Both the position numbers and the translations under genes were made by a program. The notes below the pieces were generated by a model. That model did not search any database and was not told the origin of the DNA. It worked only from the letters and a program-made list of their open reading frames with translations. A stretch of DNA of 64,000 nt from positions 22,389 through 86,388 of the forward strand of contig JBBTRK010000005.1 in NCBI GenBank assembly GCA_038065235.1. Reading direction: 5' to 3'. This DNA comes from Patescibacteria group bacterium (GTDB lineage: Bacteria; Patescibacteriota; Patescibacteriia; PEXW01). Positions 6,177 to 37,144 of this stretch are shown piece by piece. Within the stretch, counting starts at the first letter, position 1, and each line of letters begins with the position of its first letter.

Positions 6177-7415
6177 ATGTCACGTGAAGCTCCACTCGTA
6201 GGCCTTGATCTTGGTTCGACGACCGTCCGCGTCGTTGTTGCGACCCCGACCGAAGGTGGTTCGGAACTTCAGATTCTCGGCGTCGGGGAGCACAGTGCAG
6301 ACGGCATTAGTAAGGGCGCAATCACGAGCATCGAAGATGCAATCTCGTCAATTTCTGGCGCACTGGAGCAAGCCGAGCGCATGACCGGCATCCCCGTGAC
6401 ACATGCGTACGTCGGTATCAACGGCACCCACATTTCGTCGCAAGAAGTGCACGGCGTCGTTGCCGTAGCCAAGGCTGATGGCGAGATACGCGAAGAAGAC
6501 GTCGAACGCGTCATCGAAGCCTCCCAGACAATGGTGAGCCCATCAAATGTGGAAATCCTTCACGTTATCCCGCGTACCTTCACCGTTGATAACCAGAAAG
6601 GTGTCAAAGACCCCATCGGCATGTCCGGTATCCGGCTAGAAGTTGACGCGCAGGTCATTCAGGGGCTCACCGCCCAGGTGAAGAACCTCACGAAGTGCGT
6701 GTACCGCACCGGGGTGGAAATTGACGAGTTGGTTCTGGGCGTCCTGGCTGCTTCGGAAGCCGTCCTCACCAAGCGTCAGAAAGAAATTGGCGTTGCCCTG
6801 TTAAATATCGGTGCTTCCACGTCTAGTCTCATGGTGTTCGAAGAGGGCGATGTATTGCATGCTGGTATTATTCCGGTTGGGGCTGGACATATCACGAACG
6901 ATATTGCCATAGGCCTGCGAACCTCTATTGATGTTGCGGAGCGGGTAAAGATAGAATTTGGTACAGCCATGCCAGAAGAGGTTGGTAAGCGCGATGAAAT
7001 AAACCTTGCGGACATAGATCCCAAGGAATCGGGTGTCGTCTCGCGCAAACACGTCGCCGAGATTATTGAAGCTCGGGTCGCCGAAATCTTCAGCATGGTC
7101 GATAAAGAACTTCAGAAAGTCGATCGGTCTGGATTGTTGCCGGCTGGGATCGTGCTCATCGGCGGAGGCGCTAAGCTCTCTGGCATCATCGAAGTGGCTA
7201 AGCGTGAGTTCCGCTTGCCGGCCGCCGTTGGGAACCCACTCAACCTCATTACCGCAATCGACAAAGTGCACGAACCCGAGTACGCTACGGCAGTCGGCCT
7301 CGCTGCGTGGGGCGCCGCCCTTCAGCATGGCGGGGGCACACGCACATCGAAGTTTTCGACGGTGAACGTTGTTCTTGGTAAGCTACGTGGGTGGGTGAAG
7401 AACATTACTTCCTAA
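6177..7415 (+). CDS. ftsA: Cell division protein FtsA.
   Basis: Actin-like ATPase signature ([24 protein letters not shown]) directly upstream of ftsZ. Confidence 0.93.
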
Positions 7416-9666: not shown

Positions 9667-12600
9667 ATGCCGCACGTCACCCTCCGCGATCCTGCTACCC
9701 AAACTGCCACGGGCAACTATCCCGCGCATGGTTTGCGTATTACGCGTCGTCATACAACCGTGGGGGTGGACCCGCTCGAGCAGCTGACTTATGAGAAGCG
9801 TTCCTCGGTCATCAAGAATCCGGACGGCCGCATCGTCTACGAGATCACCGACGTGGAAGTCCCCACCAGCTGGTCGCAGGTTGCCACAGATATTTTGGCG
9901 CAAAAGTACTTCCGCAAGGCGGGTGTGCCGGTGCTCGACGAGCAGGGGCAGCCGATGCTGGATGGACAGGGGAACGTTGTCACCGGCTCGGAGAAGAGCG
10001 CTAGGCAAGTCGTTCGGCGCATGACCATGTGCTGGCGCTGGTGGGGTGAGCAGTATGGCTACTTCGCCTCGCCCGAGGATGCGCAGGCGTACCAAGATGA
10101 AATGGCGTACTTCCTCATCCACCAGATGAGCGCGCCGAATTCCCCGCAGTGGTTCAACACCGGCCTGCACACGGCCTACGGCATCACTGGCCGACCGCAG
10201 GGGCACTACTACGTCGTCCCCGAAACTGGCGAAGTGGTGAAGTCCGAGGATGCCTACACCCACCCCCAGCCGCACGCGTGCTTCATCCAGAGTGTCTCGG
10301 ACGACCTGGTTGGTGAAGGTGGCATCTTTGACCTTATGACCCGCGAAGCGCGACTCTTCAAGTTTGGCTCTGGCACGGGCAGCAACTTCTCGAGCCTTCG
10401 TGGTCGGGGTGAAAAGCTCGGTGGCGGTGGGACGTCGTCGGGCATGATGTCGTTCCTGAACGTCTTCGACCGTGCCGCGGGCGCCATTAAGAGCGGCGGC
10501 ACCACGCGGCGGGCAGCCAAGATGGTCATTGTGAACGTCGACCATCCCGACGTGGAAGAGTTTATCAGCTGGAAGGTTAAGGAGGAGCAGAAGGTGGCAG
10601 ACCTCGTCACCGGCAGCAAACTTAACGCCAAATATCTGAACGCAATCATGACCACGGCCCATGCCGAAGGGGCCACCGCCCTCACCCAGTCACCCGCGCT
10701 CAAGGCGCTTGTGCGCAAAGCCGTCGCTCACGAGGTGCCGCTTAACTACATTGCCCGCGCACTGGACTTGGTTCGCCAAGGCAAGACGTCAATCGATTTC
10801 CACATCCTCGACACGCATTTCGAAGGCGACGCGTACAATACCGTTTCGGGCCAGAACAGCAACAACACCGTGCGCGTCACCAACGAGTACATGGACGCGG
10901 TGCGAGTGAACGCCCCATGGAACCTCACTGCGCGCGTCACTGGCGATGTCGTGAAGACCATCCCGGCGCGTGAGCTGTGGGATACAATTGGTTACGCCGC
11001 GTGGTCCTGCGCTGACCCAGGCTTGCAATTCGACACGACGATCAATGAGTGGCACACCTGCCCGGTGGACGGCCGCATCAATGGTTCGAACCCATGCAGC
11101 GAGTACATGTTCCTGGATGACACGGCCTGCAACCTCGCTTCTATGAACTTGGCCAAGTACCTCGACGCCGATACCGGCACCTTCGACGTGGATAGCTACC
11201 GTCACAGCATTCGGCTGTGGACCGTCACGCTCGAGCTCTCGGTGCTCATGGCACAGTTCCCAGGCAAGGAGATTGCGCGCCGCAGCTACGCCTACCGTAC
11301 ACTCGGCTTGGGGTACGCCAACCTCGGTACCGTGCTCATGACCATGGGCATTCCGTACGACTCTGACGAAGCCCGCGCCATTGCCGGCAGCCTCACCGCC
11401 ATTATGACCGGCGAGTCCTACGCCACCAGCGCCGAAGTGGCCAGCGTCGTCGGGGCATTCCCAGCCTACGAGCGGAACAAGCGCCACATGCTCCGTGTTA
11501 TCCGCAACCACCGTCGCGCCGCCTACAATGCACCCGCCGATGAGTACGAAGGCCTCTCCATCACCCCGCAGGGCATCAACCACAGTGCTGTCCCGCCCTA
11601 CCTGGGTGACGCCGCCAAGCTGGCCTGGGATCGAGCTATTACCCTGGGCGAGCAGCACGGTTTCCGGAACGCACAGACCACAGTTATTGCACCCACTGGC
11701 ACGATTGGCCTCATCATGGATTGTGACACCACCGGCATCGAGCCAGACTTCGCACTCGTGAAGTTCAAGAAGCTCGCTGGCGGGGGATTCTTCAAGATCG
11801 TGAACCAGTCCATGGACAAAGCCTTGCGCCATTTGGGTTACACCGAGCCGCAGGTGAGAGACATTGAGAATTTCGCCAAGGGTCACGGTACGCTCGTGGG
11901 TTGCCCTGCCATAAACCCGCAAGAGCTCCGTGAGAAAGGTTTCACCGACGCTGACCTAGCAAAGGTCGAGGCCAACCTGAAGACTGCCTTTGACCTCCGT
12001 TTCGCTTTCACCCCTTTCGCGCTCGGGGCCGAAGCACTGACGCGCGCTGGCCTCACCGACGTACAGGTTGCAGACCGTGAGCTTAACGTCCTGGGTGCGC
12101 TCGGCTTCACCGATAGGCAGGTCTCGGAAGCCAACGAGTACGTCTGTGGCACCATGACCATCGAAGGTGCTCCACACCTGAAGCCCGAGCACCTGCCGGT
12201 GTTTGACTGCGCCAACCGCTGTGGTGCCAAGGGGAAGCGCTTCATCGCCTACGACGCGCACCTGCAGATGATGGCGGCAGCCCAGCCATTCATTTCTGGC
12301 GCAATTTCCAAGACCATCAACATGCCTAACGAGGCCACGCTCGTCGACATCGAGCAGGCGTACCAGAAGAGCTGGAAGCACATGCTGAAGGCCGTGGCTC
12401 TCTACCGCGACGGCTCCAAGCTCTCCCAGCCGCTCAACACCATTGCCGGTCTGGATGACCTGGGTCAAGCCGAGACCACCGCGGAAGAGACTAACGAGCA
12501 GGTCACGCCCAAGCAGGTGAATGATGCTACGGCTGCGCAAGCTGCCGGTCAGGCCATCCGCCATGCCTTGCCGAACAAACGCCACGGCTTCGTGCAGAAG

Positions 12601-13179
12601 GCGTACGTCGGCGGGCACAAAGTCTACCTCCGCACCGGCGAGTACGATAACGGCCAGATCGGCGAGATCTTCGTGGACATGTACAAAGAGGGGACTGCCT
12701 ACCGCAGTCTACTCTCTATGTTCGCCATTTCTATTTCCAAAGGTTTGCAGTACGGCATTCCGCTAGAGGAGTACGTCGACACCTTCACCTACACGCGTTT
12801 CGAGCCGGCTGGCACGGTCCAGGGTCACGAGAACGTGAAGATGGCCACATCCATCCTAGACTACGTGTTTCGCGTGTTGGGCTTCGAGTACCTAGGCCGC
12901 ACAGACCTGGTGCACATTAAGCCCCAACTGAAAGTCGATGAGAAAGAACTCCATGTTCCGGCACCGATCCAGCAAGCGACGCTACCCATGAATGTCCAGA
13001 CGACCGCGCAGCGAGATGCCACGAAGAGCAACGTGAGCTTCGGCATGCAGGACAAGGACGAAGCGCGCCAGCAGGGCTTCACCGGCGACCAGTGCGTGGC
13101 CTGCGGGAGCATGAAGATGAAGCGCAACGGCACCTGCATCCTCTGCCTGGACTGCGGCGAGACAACGGGGTGTAGCTAG
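9667..13179 (+). CDS. nrdJ: Class II adenosylcobalamin-dependent ribonucleotide reductase (NrdJ-like, long form).
   Basis: Active-site region SNPCSEYMFLDDTACNLASMNL. C-terminal CxxC...CxxC zinc finger (CVACGS...CILCLDCG). ~1170 aa is typical of long NrdJ. Confidence 0.82.
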   Translation: MPHVTLRDPATQTATGNYPAHGLRITRRHTTVGVDPLEQLTYEKRSSVIKNPDGRIVYEITDVEVPTSWSQVATDILAQKYFRKAGVPVLDEQGQPMLDGQGNVVTGSEKSARQVVRRMTMCWRWWGEQYGYFASPEDAQAYQDEMAYFLIHQMSAPNSPQWFNTGLHTAYGITGRPQGHYYVVPETGEVVKSEDAYTHPQPHACFIQSVSDDLVGEGGIFDLMTREARLFKFGSGTGSNFSSLRGRGEKLGGGGTSSGMMSFLNVFDRAAGAIKSGGTTRRAAKMVIVNVDHPDVEEFISWKVKEEQKVADLVTGSKLNAKYLNAIMTTAHAEGATALTQSPALKALVRKAVAHEVPLNYIARALDLVRQGKTSIDFHILDTHFEGDAYNTVSGQNSNNTVRVTNEYMDAVRVNAPWNLTARVTGDVVKTIPARELWDTIGYAAWSCADPGLQFDTTINEWHTCPVDGRINGSNPCSEYMFLDDTACNLASMNLAKYLDADTGTFDVDSYRHSIRLWTVTLELSVLMAQFPGKEIARRSYAYRTLGLGYANLGTVLMTMGIPYDSDEARAIAGSLTAIMTGESYATSAEVASVVGAFPAYERNKRHMLRVIRNHRRAAYNAPADEYEGLSITPQGINHSAVPPYLGDAAKLAWDRAITLGEQHGFRNAQTTVIAPTGTIGLIMDCDTTGIEPDFALVKFKKLAGGGFFKIVNQSMDKALRHLGYTEPQVRDIENFAKGHGTLVGCPAINPQELREKGFTDADLAKVEANLKTAFDLRFAFTPFALGAEALTRAGLTDVQVADRELNVLGALGFTDRQVSEANEYVCGTMTIEGAPHLKPEHLPVFDCANRCGAKGKRFIAYDAHLQMMAAAQPFISGAISKTINMPNEATLVDIEQAYQKSWKHMLKAVALYRDGSKLSQPLNTIAGLDDLGQAETTAEETNEQVTPKQVNDATAAQAAGQAIRHALPNKRHGFVQKAYVGGHKVYLRTGEYDNGQIGEIFVDMYKEGTAYRSLLSMFAISISKGLQYGIPLEEYVDTFTYTRFEPAGTVQGHENVKMATSILDYVFRVLGFEYLGRTDLVHIKPQLKVDEKELHVPAPIQQATLPMNVQTTAQRDATKSNVSFGMQDKDEARQQGFTGDQCVACGSMKMKRNGTCILCLDCGETTGCS

Positions 13180-17740: not shown

Positions 17741-19018
17741 ATGTCCGATACACCTATGACTCCTGCCCCTGCCCGCCATGCTTCGCAAGGCGAGGCAGGC
17801 GGGCCGAAACCTCAGCCACGCTACACGCAGTCGGCGTTGACCGTGGCGGTCATCCTTAGTCTTATCTTTGGTACCATTGGTGGGGCACTCGGCGGCGCGC
17901 TCGCCTCGGGGAATTTCGATTCGTGGTTCAACCGGACATTCCAGAAGACCTTTGTTGCCTCATCCACGAGTGGCAGCTCGACCACGTTGAAAGTCGAGGA
18001 GGAATCTGCAACCATTGACGTCGTAAAGAAGGTTCAGAAATCTGTCGTCAGTATTATTATCACTAAAGACTTAAGTAAAGTATATAACCAATCGGGAGGT
18101 TCGCCGTTCGATTTCTTTTTCGGTACGGGTCAGCAACAGCCGCAGCAAGGCACGAAAGAAATTGGGGGCGGTTCCGGGTTCATACTTTCGGCTGACGGGT
18201 ACATCATGACGAACAAGCACGTCGTTGACGACACCCAGGCTGACTACACCGTACTGACGAACGACGCGAAGAGTTACTCAGCGAAAGTTATTGCGAGCGA
18301 CCCGGTGAATGACCTGGCTGTGCTGAAGATCGAGTCGAAAGATTTGCCGGCAATTGAATTTGGCGACTCAGAGAACCTTCAAATAGGCCAGACCGTAATT
18401 GCCATTGGTAATGCGCTCGGTGAGTATCGAAACACCGTGACCAAAGGTGTCGTGTCGGGTCTCGCCCGGCGTATCACCGCTGGCGATGGGCAATCGTCTG
18501 AGACGTTAGAGAACGCCATTCAAACTGATGCTGCTATTAATCCTGGGAATTCTGGTGGTCCGCTGCTCAACCTGGCTGGTCAAGTCATTGGCGTCAACGT
18601 CGCGGTGAGCCAGCAGGGCCAGCTCATCGGCTTCGCTATCCCGGCGAACCAAGCGAACACGGTGTATGAAAGCGTGAGAAAGACTGGGAAAATTGTTCGA
18701 CCCTACCTGGGCGTGCGGTACATGCCCATAACAAAAGCGCTTAAGGAGCAGAATAAACTTTCCGTTGACTACGGCGTCCTTATCCAACGCGGGACGACTT
18801 CGGGCGAGCTAGCGATTATCCCGGGTGGCCCAGCCGATAAAGCCGGGCTGCAGGAGAACGATATTATTTTGGAATTGAACGGGGTGAAACTGGACACCGA
18901 ACATAGCTTGGCCGGTGAAATTCAAAAGCACGCCCCCGGCGACACTATTACCCTTAAAGTCTTGAGCAAGGGCAAGGAGAAGTCGGTTACGGCCACGCTT
19001 GCAGAGCTGAAGCCGTAA
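17741..19018 (+). CDS. htrA: HtrA/DegP-family serine protease with a C-terminal PDZ domain.
   Basis: Trypsin-like GNSGGPLLN and a catalytic-triad context. PDZ-like C-terminus. Confidence 0.85.
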   Translation: MSDTPMTPAPARHASQGEAGGPKPQPRYTQSALTVAVILSLIFGTIGGALGGALASGNFDSWFNRTFQKTFVASSTSGSSTTLKVEEESATIDVVKKVQKSVVSIIITKDLSKVYNQSGGSPFDFFFGTGQQQPQQGTKEIGGGSGFILSADGYIMTNKHVVDDTQADYTVLTNDAKSYSAKVIASDPVNDLAVLKIESKDLPAIEFGDSENLQIGQTVIAIGNALGEYRNTVTKGVVSGLARRITAGDGQSSETLENAIQTDAAINPGNSGGPLLNLAGQVIGVNVAVSQQGQLIGFAIPANQANTVYESVRKTGKIVRPYLGVRYMPITKALKEQNKLSVDYGVLIQRGTTSGELAIIPGGPADKAGLQENDIILELNGVKLDTEHSLAGEIQKHAPGDTITLKVLSKGKEKSVTATLAELKP

Positions 19019-34896: not shown

Positions 34897-35121
34897 TTAC
34901 GCGGCGAATGTGTGTGTGCCGTACTTCGGACTGCAGTGCGGGCAACGGCGATGGATTATGCCATTACCCCAGCCCATTTTTTTCAAGAATTCAGCATGTT
35001 TTTCGTTGCGTATGCGGTCCTGCTCTTCCCTTGGAAGTTTTTGGAATGCCTCACATGCTTCTTGGAATTGTCTGATACAGGCACGAGTCGCCTCGTGTTC
35101 TTCCGGTGTTAATTCAGGCAT
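34897..35121 (-). CDS. Small CxxC-containing hypothetical protein.
   Basis: Strong AGGAGG RBS. 74 aa. Confidence 0.5.
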   Translation of the reverse strand: MPELTPEEHEATRACIRQFQEACEAFQKLPREEQDRIRNEKHAEFLKKMGWGNGIIHRRCPHCSPKYGTHTFAA

Positions 35122-35186
35122 TATTGCCTCCTTTGGTTTGTGACCTAAGTATACACCGGCTACAAAAAGACTTTAAGCGCAGTGAA

Positions 35187-35456
35187 TTATGCTTTACCCA
35201 ACGATTCCTTCAATATTGTCCGCAACGCGACTTTGCCTTTCGTCGTCTTGAAGTAGGCTTCGCGCCGTCGGGCTTCTGCGGCAGTTAGAAAACCTTCAAA
35301 GAAAATGAGTTTCAGTGGTCGGCGATTTGCCGTTGAAACGTTTTGGCCTGCGTTGTGGGCTTTCAGGCGTTCAGCCACGTCGCCGGTATATCCGATGTAG
35401 AGTTTTCGGTCCCTGAGGCTTTGGAGTACGTAGACGTAGCAAAAGTTTTCGTGCAT
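35187..35456 (-). CDS. GIY-YIG nuclease-domain protein.
   Basis: CYVYVLQS...LYIGYTGDVAERLKAHN. Confidence 0.7.
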   Translation of the reverse strand: MHENFCYVYVLQSLRDRKLYIGYTGDVAERLKAHNAGQNVSTANRRPLKLIFFEGFLTAAEARRREAYFKTTKGKVALRTILKESLGKA

Positions 35457-35622
35457 ACAAGCATTATAACGGAAGAGCCCCGCACCAGTCGCTACTCGCC
35501 TTGCGGCGAGGCTCCGGTGCAGGGCATGAACCACTCGTCACACTTTCATGGCTGGTCACTCTTCAGAAATTGGTACTGTACTAGAGTGGCTCGCCATGAA
35601 CCCGAGCGAAGCGAGTGGTTCA

Positions 35623-36026
35623 TGGTGGAGATGAGGGGTCTTGCGCCCCTGTCTAGAATGCGGCGGGCAGGTGGTCTACAGGTGTAGGGCGTTCACGGGT
35701 GTTTCGATTGTGCCGCATGGAGCGCCCAAGCTCGGCAGAATCTAGTGGAGGTGATTTTCGGTTGCGCTGTTACCACACCCACGCAACCTACGCCTGAATT
35801 ATGACACTCGCAATTCCCGCGCCAGGCCGCGGGGCGAATGGGTTATCGGTTTTTAAGCGAGAACCGGAGCAAAGCTGGGCATTGCGAACGCGTTAGCGAA
35901 CGCAGTCTTCACTTTGCTGACAATGTTATTGGCAGTTGTCAATTTGTCCAGCAGTTTCACGCCGTGCCGAACGAGGGCGACCCGCACACTTACCGTAATG
36001 CAATCTATCAACTAATGGACATCCCC
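35623..36026 (-). ncRNA. ssrA: tmRNA (ssrA).
   Basis: Lies immediately downstream of smpB. The 5' GGGGAUG pairs with 3' CAUCUCC-A-CCA to give a 7-bp acceptor stem with a G3-U70 wobble (the AlaRS identity element). A T-arm-like GGGG-CGCAAGA-CCCC sits before the 3' end. An internal tag frame reads ...ANAFAMPSFAPVLA with TAA at 35853-35855. Confidence 0.6.
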
Positions 36027-36163
36027 GAGGAGATTGTTAGTGATAACATGCTCTTCGTGGACGTTCAATGCTTATACTTTATGTTGCGCTGACAGAGAAC
36101 CAAGAACTGAGAACCGTGAACCAGAAAGTTCGGTTCTAAGTTCTTTGTTTTGTGTTCAAAGTT

Positions 36164-36616
36164 CTATCCCTTCTGCCGCATGGCGCGGGCGACGTCGCGG
36201 GCAACTTCACGTTTCTTTATGGACGACCGTTTATCGTGCGCTTTTTTTCCGCGCGCCAGGCCGACGCCGACTTTCACCAAACCTCGGTAGGTAAAGAATT
36301 TTAGCGGGATAAGCGTGCAGCCCGCGCTATGCATCTTGCCAATGAGGCTGGCAATCTCGTTGCGCTTCATGAGCAACCGACGATCACGATCTGGGACGTA
36401 GTGTGTCTGCACCGCGGCGGCCGGTTTGTATGGGCCGATGAACGCGTGCACCAGCCATAGGCTGCTCTCCCGTAAGCTCACATAGGCACCCTGCAGGCTC
36501 ACGTTGCCGCCCTTCACACTCTTCACCTCGGGGCCGGTTAGGGCAATACCCGCATCGTACGATTCCAGGATGTCGTAGTTAAAGGTAGCTTTTTTGTTGC
36601 GGGCGAGCTGGGGCAT
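36164..36616 (-). CDS. smpB: SsrA-binding protein SmpB.
   Basis: NKKATFNYDILESYDAGIALTGPEVKSVK. Start at MPQLARNKKA. Confidence 0.9.
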   Translation of the reverse strand: MPQLARNKKATFNYDILESYDAGIALTGPEVKSVKGGNVSLQGAYVSLRESSLWLVHAFIGPYKPAAAVQTHYVPDRDRRLLMKRNEIASLIGKMHSAGCTLIPLKFFTYRGLVKVGVGLARGKKAHDKRSSIKKREVARDVARAMRQKG

Positions 36617-36712
36617 AGAAGCAGTATAGCGCAGGTGTTCACGCCTGCGGGATAGAATAGCGGCCCGTGTCCTGGTGGGGAGCACGGGCCGACTGTTTAT
36701 TGTTTTTCTGCG

Positions 36713-37144
36713 TCAGGCGGCGATGGCACGATTGTGCAGAATGACCGGCGAGGAGTGGTTGCGCAACGTGCGCTCCAGGCTCCGTAGGTCGTCAGCGAAC
36801 TTGTACGCGGTGACGAATACTCCGTGGACATCGACTCCTAGATCTTCTTTGGCGTGCATACGGCACTGCGGTGATGCCTTACACTCCGCCGCAATGAGCA
36901 GGAGCTGGGCTCCAACCGGCTTACTATAGCCAAATGAGTGTAGGTAGATACGGTGGTCGTCACCAAGACAGGTTTTCGCCGTGTGCGTGAGGGCGAAGGT
37001 GGCGCGCTTCAGATCGATTGGATGCCCTTCGGTGCTGGGCTCAGGAAAATCTTCGTACTTTTCAAAACGGCAATTTCCATGATGTTGCATGTAGTTCCTG
37101 ATACCTTCGAAGAACTCCACAACGGATTGACGGTTTCTTGCCAA
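36713..37144 (-). CDS. Hypothetical protein.
   Basis: ORF with good coding appearance but no recognised motif. Confidence 0.4.
   Translation of the reverse strand: MARNRQSVVEFFEGIRNYMQHHGNCRFEKYEDFPEPSTEGHPIDLKRATFALTHTAKTCLGDDHRIYLHSFGYSKPVGAQLLLIAAECKASPQCRMHAKEDLGVDVHGVFVTAYKFADDLRSLERTLRNHSSPVILHNRAIAA

Follow-up and report, generated by a model that had tools for sequence, protein, structure and literature searches.

A one-piece tmRNA gene with a CGCAAGA T-loop next to smpB in Candidatus Kerfeldbacteria: standard architecture, an elbow of a known alternative class and a lineage-typical tag

Two kinds of tmRNA invite comparison with the gene described here. The standard one-piece tmRNA (RF00023; E. 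coli, Thermus thermophilus) carries G-G in its D-loop, a UUCRANN T-loop and a GAC/GGAC junction into helix P2. The two-piece tmRNAs of the Alpha- and Betaproteobacteria (RF01849, RF01850 and RF04321; Caulobacter crescentus) are circularly permuted and made of two RNA pieces, with a UGCRA T-loop, a D-loop U-A-G and occasional CGC variants. The D-loop/T-loop interaction is needed for SmpB binding, and the T-loop of E. coli tmRNA contains m5U and pseudouridine (PMC3968760). In 2005 a G was recorded at the position of U342 in the C. crescentus tmRNA, and GG in a jakobid mitochondrial tmRNA was recorded alongside it (PMC1168896). The general signature of T-loops and U-turns is (g/u)NR, and a ribosomal T-loop that was studied in isolation reads UGGAAC (PMC2175325).

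The window, by which we mean the whole stretch of 64,000 nucleotides that was analysed, contains a one-piece tmRNA gene, ssrA, of 404 nt on the minus strand (36026..35623). Rfam model RF00023 matches it with 75.7 bits (gathering score 47, E 1.3e-27) over its full length, model positions 1-374 of 374, and the boundaries of the match are exactly those given, without a strand, in an earlier note on this DNA. The note's identification of the gene as ssrA proved correct. Its placing of the gene downstream of smpB was also confirmed, the two genes lying 137 nt apart on the same strand, and the SmpB partner is encoded in the window (PF01668, E 4.3e-48). The note's reading of the acceptor stem holds: GGGGAUG pairs with CAUCUCC, including G3·U70, and discriminator A73 and an encoded CCA come next, so that the alanine identity set (7-bp acceptor stem, G3·U70, discriminator A, 3' CCA) is present. 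The D-loop is stemless with a purine-G dinucleotide and leads through a GA/GA junction into helix P2; G18-A19 stands opposite G374-A375, and U20-A373 replaces the consensus C-G. After PK1 comes a tag reading frame without an initiation codon, which ends at a stop codon in helix P5, and all four pseudoknots, PK1 to PK4, are supported on a nine-sequence alignment. The P2b/c helix has several mismatches. The T-arm reads AGGGG-CGCAAGA-CCCCU, a 5-bp stem with a 7-nt loop; the loop, C-G-C-A-A-G-A, departs from the canonical U-U-C-R-A.

The resemblance to the standard one-piece tmRNA extends to gene order and smpB linkage, the acceptor stem with G3·U70, A73 and CCA, the stemless D-loop, GA/GA junction and long helix P2, the order of PK1, resume codon, tag frame and stop codon in the P5 loop, PK2 to PK4, and the dimensions of the T-arm. 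The differences are a D-loop with A-G instead of G-G and two nucleotides shorter, a GAU/AGAC junction, a tag of 26 codons that ends in PVLA rather than the ALAA of E. coli, and a T-loop without the uridines that are modified to m5U and pseudouridine in E. coli (PMC3968760). The window's tmRNA is a constrained one-piece tmRNA of standard architecture, with an elbow from an alternative class that is already known and a tag of the kind usual in its lineage. We consider it highly probable (about 0.92) that ssrA is a functional gene of Candidatus Kerfeldbacteria (Patescibacteria), specifying a standard one-piece tmRNA that would act with the SmpB encoded upstream. The coordinates are collected in Table 1.

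Table 1. Features of the ssrA locus; positions are counted from the first nucleotide of the window, and nt numbers from the 5' end of the tmRNA.
Feature	Position	Strand	Evidence
ssrA	35623..36026	-	Rfam RF00023, full length; orthologues just 3' of smpB in 18/20 related loci
Acceptor stem, 5' strand GGGGAUG (nt 1-7)	36020..36026	-	Pairs with 35627-35633; 7/7 pairs invariant in 9 relatives
D-loop UCCAUUAGUU (nt 8-17)	36010..36019	-	A14-G15 at 36013-36012, not G-G; 2 nt fewer before the GA motif
G18-A19 sheared-pair motif and P2a-d 5' strand (nt 18-47)	35980..36009	-	Compensatory changes in P2a-d
PK1 (P3 48-51/64-67; P4 55-61/75-81)	35946..35979	-	P4 88.9% paired; 4/7 pairs with double-sided changes
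Tag frame, 26 codons, ANNIVSKVKTAFANAFAMPSFAPVLA	35853..35933	-	Resume codon GCC 35931-35933; stop codon UAA 35853-35855
Helix P5 (nt 162-186), stop codon in loop	35841..35865	-	95.2% paired; 4/7 pairs with double-sided changes
PK2 (nt 187-235)	35792..35840	-	Second stem weakest, 73% paired
PK3 (nt 239-282)	35745..35788	-	Main stem: 7/8 pairs with double-sided changes
PK4 (nt 285-340)	35687..35742	-	Main stem: 9/9 pairs with double-sided changes, 96.3% paired
P2 3' strand and G374-A375-C376 junction (AGAC)	35651..35683	-	Rfam alignment, pair counts
T-arm AGGGG/CCCCU, T-loop CGCAAGA at 35639-35645	35634..35650	-	Stem 100% paired, 2 pairs with double-sided changes
Acceptor 3' strand CAUCUCC, discriminator A, CCA	35623..35633	-	Sequence reading, Rfam
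smpB	36164..36685	-	Pfam PF01668, E 4.3e-48
Structured 3' trailer of ssrA	35525..35624	-	Perfect 13-nt arms; -48.5 kcal/mol, z = -4.0

A circularly permuted two-piece gene was considered and rejected, because one continuous match contains both the 5' strand and, 376 nt downstream of it, the T-arm. No match to RF04321, RF01849 or RF01850 was listed at gathering score in the window; RF04321 belongs to no clan and would be listed, but RF01849-51 share the clan of RF00023, and a weaker overlapping match to them would be suppressed. Rfam located no second tmRNA candidate in the window. An island integrated at ssrA would be expected to leave a duplicate of the gene's 3' end, and none was present there within 3 mismatches.

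The earlier note had suspected a deep-branching, reduced lineage, which fits the host. In a species-level genome collection the closest SmpB loci belong to Candidatus Kerfeldbacteria and other Patescibacteria genomes, with identities to the SmpB of the window of 94% (L001), 89% (L005), 87% (L002), 82% (L003) and 75% (L004). The host is an ultra-small groundwater bacterium of the Candidatus Kerfeldbacteria (Patescibacteria/CPR), and its arginyl-tRNA synthetase is found on 19 public contigs, Hainich groundwater assemblies among them. When 20 related loci were scanned with Rfam, 18 had a tmRNA directly 3' of smpB. A metagenome scan with SmpB supplied a single further complete sequence from the clade, L203; the two contigs that came closest in that scan (L201 and L202) stop before the T-arm. 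The smpB reading frame as listed has a GTG start, and the public gene calls (L425, L426) give a protein of 150 aa, fitting a start at Met24 (36616).

To describe the constraint on the gene we used a secondary structure of 103 pairs, taken from the Rfam alignment with the pseudoknot stems added manually (P1, P2a-d, PK1, a hairpin inside the tag region, P5, PK2, PK3, PK4 and P12), and alignment A2 of nine Kerfeldbacteria-clade tmRNAs. The architecture of P1, P2, four pseudoknots, P5 and T-arm is kept across all nine. Standard pairs occupy 89.6% of the 923 cells of A2, against 38-43% when the pairs were slid by 1-3 columns. Double-sided changes affect 51 of the 103 pairs, compared with 10-22 in the slid controls and 25.1 ± 3.4 in shuffled alignments, none of 500 shuffles reaching 51. 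Apart from the acceptor stem, which is invariant, and the second PK2 stem, all helices show compensatory change; A11, A14, G15 and U16 of the D-loop are invariant. Since pairs change in a compensatory manner and the tag frame is intact in the nine clade sequences, the ssrA of the window is constrained and not a pseudogene.

The tag frame is open in all nine clade sequences, with 21-26 codons, which bears out the internal reading frame ending in TAA that the earlier note had proposed. Its indels, of 3, 3 and 15 nt, are multiples of three, and the variable columns fall 10/3/17 on codon positions 1/2/3, as in coding-type variation. GAYAANU precedes the resume codon in 9/9, with A at -4 and a pyrimidine at -5, matching positions important for frame setting in E. 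coli. The clade tags (n=9) end in FAPVLA, FAPALA, FAPAFA, FAPVVA or FAPSFA, those of more distant Patescibacteria in APSLA, ALALA, ALAVA, AFAFA or AFATA, and the tags that ARAGORN called in relatives begin and end much as that of the window does. The ending ...FAPx[L/V/F]A is thus clade-typical: PVLA is indeed unlike the ALAA of E. coli, as the note had remarked, but it is the norm in its own clade. What these endings share is a small/hydrophobic-hydrophobic-Ala C-terminus, like that of other tmRNA tags.

For a long tag ending in ...FAPVLA, one may ask which protease would recognise it in a reduced genome. Gur and Sauer in 2008 reportedly found that the long Mycoplasma ssrA tags, which end in ...FAFA, are degraded by Lon rather than ClpXP. 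The Mycoplasma tags and that of the window are alike in being long, in having an aromatic/aliphatic-Ala C-terminus and in coming from a reduced-genome bacterium, but they have no sequence relationship. Among the 15 window ORFs that were compared with Pfam, none was clpX, clpP or lon. The window does encode an HtrA-type PDZ protease, at 17741-19018.

The T-loop was compared in two sets of tmRNAs. In the one-piece set, which consists of 39 unique tRNA-like domains adjoining smpB in the loci fetched, 17 have G at loop position 2, as UGC in 14, as CGC in two (the window and L001) and as CGU in one (L007). All 17 come from Patescibacteria: Kerfeldbacteria, one Moranbacteria and one Uhrbacteria genome, and unclassified members. 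G at loop position 2 (UGC in place of UUC) is common to all the close Patescibacteria relatives that were sampled; in other phyla and in more distant Patescibacteria the loop has UUC. A scan of IMG/VR for T-arms with a YGCRA loop, followed by a tmRNA-type acceptor strand, gave at least 120 contigs. Of the 120 YGC matches listed, 119 have perfectly paired T-stems. Judged by where the 5' acceptor strand lies, 112 of the 120 belong to permuted genes and one to a one-piece gene; all 20 YGC loci passed to Rfam were permuted two-piece tmRNAs of alpha or beta type. An equal IMG/VR sample with UUC loops contained 54 one-piece and 34 permuted genes. Five CGC-pattern matches (L293, L086, L288, L292 and L298) were not tmRNAs by Rfam or ARAGORN and were left out of the tmRNA counts.

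G at T-loop position 2 is therefore common in tmRNAs generally, and very common in the two-piece tmRNAs of Proteobacteria, and the UGCRA loop still fits the general T-loop and U-turn signature. Because YGC loops occur in many tmRNAs that score above Rfam thresholds and have been recorded for Caulobacter, U-U-C-R-A is a typical and not an obligatory feature of tmRNA. The lack of UUC to which the earlier note drew attention is real, but the loop is less exotic than it suggested, belonging as it does to the widespread YGC class. The literature on tmRNA with Patescibacteria or T-loop yielded no paper describing the T-loop of this clade; the curated tmRNA database (97,179 sequences; PMC11915505) may well already contain sequences from it.

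The D-loop varies together with the T-loop. We read the D-loop dinucleotide 3 nt upstream of the [C/U/A]GA[C/U] motif; this fixed-spacing count was used in place of a 'contains AG' criterion, which is confounded by A-G-G strings. With UUC loops in IMG/VR the dinucleotide is GG in 74/88 and AG in 0/88; among the YGC matches listed it is AG in 92/113, most of the remaining cases being explained by one extra nucleotide after U-A-G, although the association of AG with YGC is partly confounded by shared ancestry within each lineage. In the one-piece tmRNAs next to smpB, GG accompanies 20 of 21 UUC loops and none of the 17 loops with G at position 2. Since the switch from GG/UUC to AG/UGC is seen in unrelated lineages, the contact between D-loop and T-loop most likely persists with a changed chemistry. 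In one-piece and two-piece tmRNAs alike, GG or AG in the D-loop covaries naturally and cleanly with U or G at T-loop position 2. This covariation supports the tertiary contact on which SmpB binding depends, and it shows that whole lineages can do without the modified T-loop uridines. The contact is not uniformly preserved, given that the D-loop of the clade is 2 nt short and that in L008, L012 and L013 even the G of the D-loop A-G is absent.

The one-piece tmRNAs of other Patescibacteria (Kerfeldbacteria, Moranbacteria and Uhrbacteria: L001-L013, L063, L203-L208 and L240) share with the window the smpB-ssrA linkage, YGC T-loops and tags of the form AN..VSKVK...AF...FAPx[L/V/F]A. Several features of the elbow are narrower in distribution. 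In the window and in L001-L007/L203 only two nucleotides separate A14-G15 from G18-A19, and Rfam aligns the window's D-loop AG to the consensus GG with 2 nt deleted; the more distant L009 and L063 have a D-loop of standard length with A-G. In the same sequences the junction reads GAU...AGAC against the consensus GAC...GGAC, a change from C-G to U-A at the base of P2a, where the C-G pair has been called weakly supported (PMC1168896). Loop positions 6-7 are G-A in 10/10 Kerfeldbacteria-clade sequences and U/A/C-rich in other YGC loops.

The window, its nearest relative L001 and, independently, L007 have C at loop position 1; among these Patescibacteria the CGC loop itself is shared only with L001, L007 having CGU. 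CGC loops also occur in 25 IMG/VR contigs, permuted alpha-type tmRNAs included, which points to a rarer but recurrent variant. A C here cannot make the reverse-Hoogsteen U·A pair that normally involves the A at position 5, for which a C·A pair might substitute. As loop positions 1 and 2 are C and G, neither m5U nor pseudouridine can be made in the T-loop of the window's tmRNA. The window's tRNA-Asp has an ordinary GGUUCGAUUCC arm, and hence the change is specific to the tmRNA. We regard the shortened D-loop of the clade and C at loop position 1 as minor variants, and found no paper describing either for Patescibacteria. As the window's gene is in one piece with four pseudoknots and has no RF04321 match, the elbow class that it has in common with the two-piece tmRNAs is convergent or ancient and not a sign of permutation.

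More speculatively, the one-piece tmRNAs of a large Patescibacteria clade could have independently adopted the two-piece-type A-G/Y-G-C elbow, which the Kerfeldbacteria then changed further (short D-loop, fixed G-A, and loss of the U·A pair in the window's species), and their docking on SmpB and the ribosome may rely on another tertiary arrangement. We regard this as rather unlikely; if it were true, a tRNA-like domain with an unmodifiable T-loop would be a natural experiment on the minimal needs of a tmRNA elbow. It also seems improbable that the T-loop of the Kerfeldbacteria clade is remodelled into an extended hairpin, with the classic contact lost or replaced and SmpB alone shaping the elbow. 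In such a model U54-A60 would close a GCAAG pentaloop or, in the window, C54-G59 would close a GCAA tetraloop with A60 bulged. The predicted nearest-neighbour gain is 1.2 kcal/mol for the window (-7.8 vs -6.6) and 2.9 for UGCAAGA (-9.5 vs -6.6), but differences of 1-3 kcal/mol are small and such models ignore tertiary contacts. The G-A at loop positions 6-7, which sets the clade apart from other YGC loops, and the short D-loop of the same clade would suit a hairpin, as would the loop of L007 (CGUACGA), which lacks A at position 5 and keeps a possible C-G closing pair. The closing pairs, however, differ between the U54 and C54 sequences, so that there is no single conserved alternative, and CGC loops elsewhere have U, not G, at position 6. 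Moreover, A14-G15 does not vary in the clade and is the same A-G that accompanies YGC loops in unrelated tmRNAs, which speaks for persistence of the contact.

That the gene is a decaying or non-functional copy with a drifted T-loop is very improbable. It does have the second-lowest Rfam score of the tmRNAs scanned (75.7 bits vs 68-139 in related loci), ARAGORN is negative, and there are the mismatches in P2b/c. The low score, however, is common to the whole clade and thus reflects the model and not decay; smpB is intact and adjoining, no other tmRNA candidate is available in the window, and nine genomes show conservation of acceptor stem, D-loop core, T-stem and tag frame, with abundant compensatory change. 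ARAGORN, which the earlier note had proposed as a check, reported only the tRNA-Asp in the window and no tmRNA. Among 19 one-piece tmRNAs with a non-UUC loop it called four (L008, L012, L063 and L240), missing the window and 14 others, and these 14 were recovered by Rfam or by an explicit structural scan. Because most clade members are also missed, we judge the result to be a false negative which leaves the identification standing. Scarcely credible, finally, is a sequencing or assembly error at loop position 1 that would have turned a true UGCAAGA into CGCAAGA: the next relatives (L002, L003, L004, L005 and L203) do have U there, but two assemblies made independently from separate read sets both carry the identical 404-nt tmRNA (L425, ENA ERZ1292616, from Hainich aquifer wells; L426, Logan ERR3858127), and CGCAAGA recurs in the distinct genome of L001, whose SmpB differs from that of the window. 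A functional one-piece tmRNA remains our reading of the gene. As ARAGORN misses it together with most clade tmRNAs, and the public gene calls place a spurious ORF of 84 aa on the opposite strand at ssrA, the gene is likely to be under-annotated in this Patescibacteria clade.

The steps by which the tmRNA would act are those of the established trans-translation pathway. RNase P would trim the 5' end of a precursor, trimming at the structured 3' trailer would free the encoded CCA, and AlaRS would charge the RNA by way of G3·U70 and A73. SmpB would bind the elbow of the tRNA-like domain, which is of the alternative class, with D-loop A-G paired with T-loop Y-G-C-R-A and not G-G with U-U-C-R-A, and with a species-level change from U to C at loop position 1. 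EF-Tu would bring the complex to a stalled ribosome and the nascent chain would pass to the tmRNA-borne alanine. Translation would then resume at GCC (35931-35933), add ANNIVSKVKTAFANAFAMPSFAPVLA and halt at UAA in the P5 loop, the hydrophobic ...FAPVLA end marking the product for proteolysis. By analogy with known systems we infer charging, SmpB binding, tagging and the acting protease; the mechanism of trans-translation as known is unchanged by this tmRNA.

A scan of positions 35100-36800 for consensus promoters and intrinsic terminators gave matches at chance level, none of them sensibly placed for ssrA. By eye, a candidate TTGAAC-17 nt-TATCAC can be seen about 13 nt upstream of the 5' end of ssrA. 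Directly after the CCA lies a hairpin nested in a long-range inverted repeat with perfect 13-bp pairing (35525-35537 / 35612-35624), and the folded trailer has a markedly low minimum free energy (Table 1). Apart from the tmRNA, Rfam recognised no family in this region (35100-36200, E ≤ 1). Some hairpin follows the CCA in all relatives, and the long-range arms are kept in L003, L004 and L005; the structure probably serves termination or 3' processing. A GIY-YIG gene follows ssrA at 35187-35534.

The tag reading frame of the tmRNA contains an 8-bp hairpin which is lacking in the standard tmRNA model. It stretches across the middle of the frame, with 35 coding nucleotides between its two arms, and across an alignment of nine Kerfeldbacteria-clade relatives it is conserved, with 91.7% of the positions paired. 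On the opposite strand there is an 84-aa open reading frame which is annotated as a gene (1591–1845) in L425 and L426, two independent public assemblies with identical tmRNAs. It has no Pfam match in either assembly, and the tmRNA is absent from every gene list of the public assemblies that carry this call. The ORF is most likely a spurious gene call arising from failure to recognise the tmRNA.

Features of the window and of the comparison loci
Feature	Location	Strand	Remarks
8-bp hairpin	window 35868-35918 (tmRNA nt 109-116 with 152-159)	-	AGCAAAGU pairs with GCUUUGCU
84-aa ORF	window 35838-36092	+	opposite tmRNA, nearly all within ssrA
Structured ssrA 3' trailer	window 35525-35624	-	inverted repeat plus hairpin
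Small GIY-YIG nuclease-domain gene	window 35187-35534	-	Pfam E 7.9e-15
Class II (B12-dependent) ribonucleotide reductase	window 9667-13179	+	1170 aa
tRNA-like element, example	L086 ~6360-6435		resembles a lone tmRNA tRNA-like domain
L014 tmRNA	L014:3606-4155		550 nt, Patescibacteria genome
Patescibacteria tmRNAs with UGC T-loops	L008:3524-3923, L012:3515-3913, L013:3473-3875
L072 one-piece tmRNA	L072:4052-4441		T-loop AUCAUUC, A at loop position 1

The ssrA 3' trailer folds with a minimum free energy of -48.5 kcal/mol (z = -4.0). It comprises a perfect 13-bp inverted repeat around 74 nt, the long-range arms of which are conserved in the related loci L003, L004 and L005, and a second hairpin immediately 3' of the CCA end; no Rfam family matched it. 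The GIY-YIG gene, annotated at 89 aa in the public assemblies, lies directly downstream of ssrA. tmRNA genes are often used as integration sites; a search for a repeat of the ssrA end found none.

A tRNA-like element of approximately 70 nt was located in 13 IMG/VR viral contigs (L086, L281, L283–L286, L289, L291, L296, L299–L301 and L303). It reads GGGGGUG-UAAAAGAAUUCGAC...GGAC-CCGGG-CGCGAUA-CCCGG-CACCUCC-ACCA, the 5' acceptor strand being just 38 nt upstream of the GAC that precedes the T-arm, and the L086 copy was recognised by neither Rfam nor ARAGORN. This element may represent a coding-free form of tmRNA or a phage attachment site.

Among the comparison loci, the L014 tmRNA is approximately 150 nt longer than those of its relatives and scores only 68.3 bits, which suggests an internal insertion in the gene; ARAGORN made no call, though the T-loop is the canonical UUCAACU. 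The tmRNAs of L008, L012 and L013 share the acceptor stem GGGAGCG and a D-loop core without any G (AUAAUCGAC or UAAAAUCGAC), such that the G which normally pairs with the loop C also appears to be absent. The L072 tmRNA, whose D-loop has the usual GG, is a further rare exception at loop position 1, where the tmRNA of the window carries C.

Elsewhere in the window, the ribonucleotide reductase possesses a C-terminal TSCPD domain and a barrel domain match (residues 204–750) split into two stretches, which could reflect an insertion, such as an intein.
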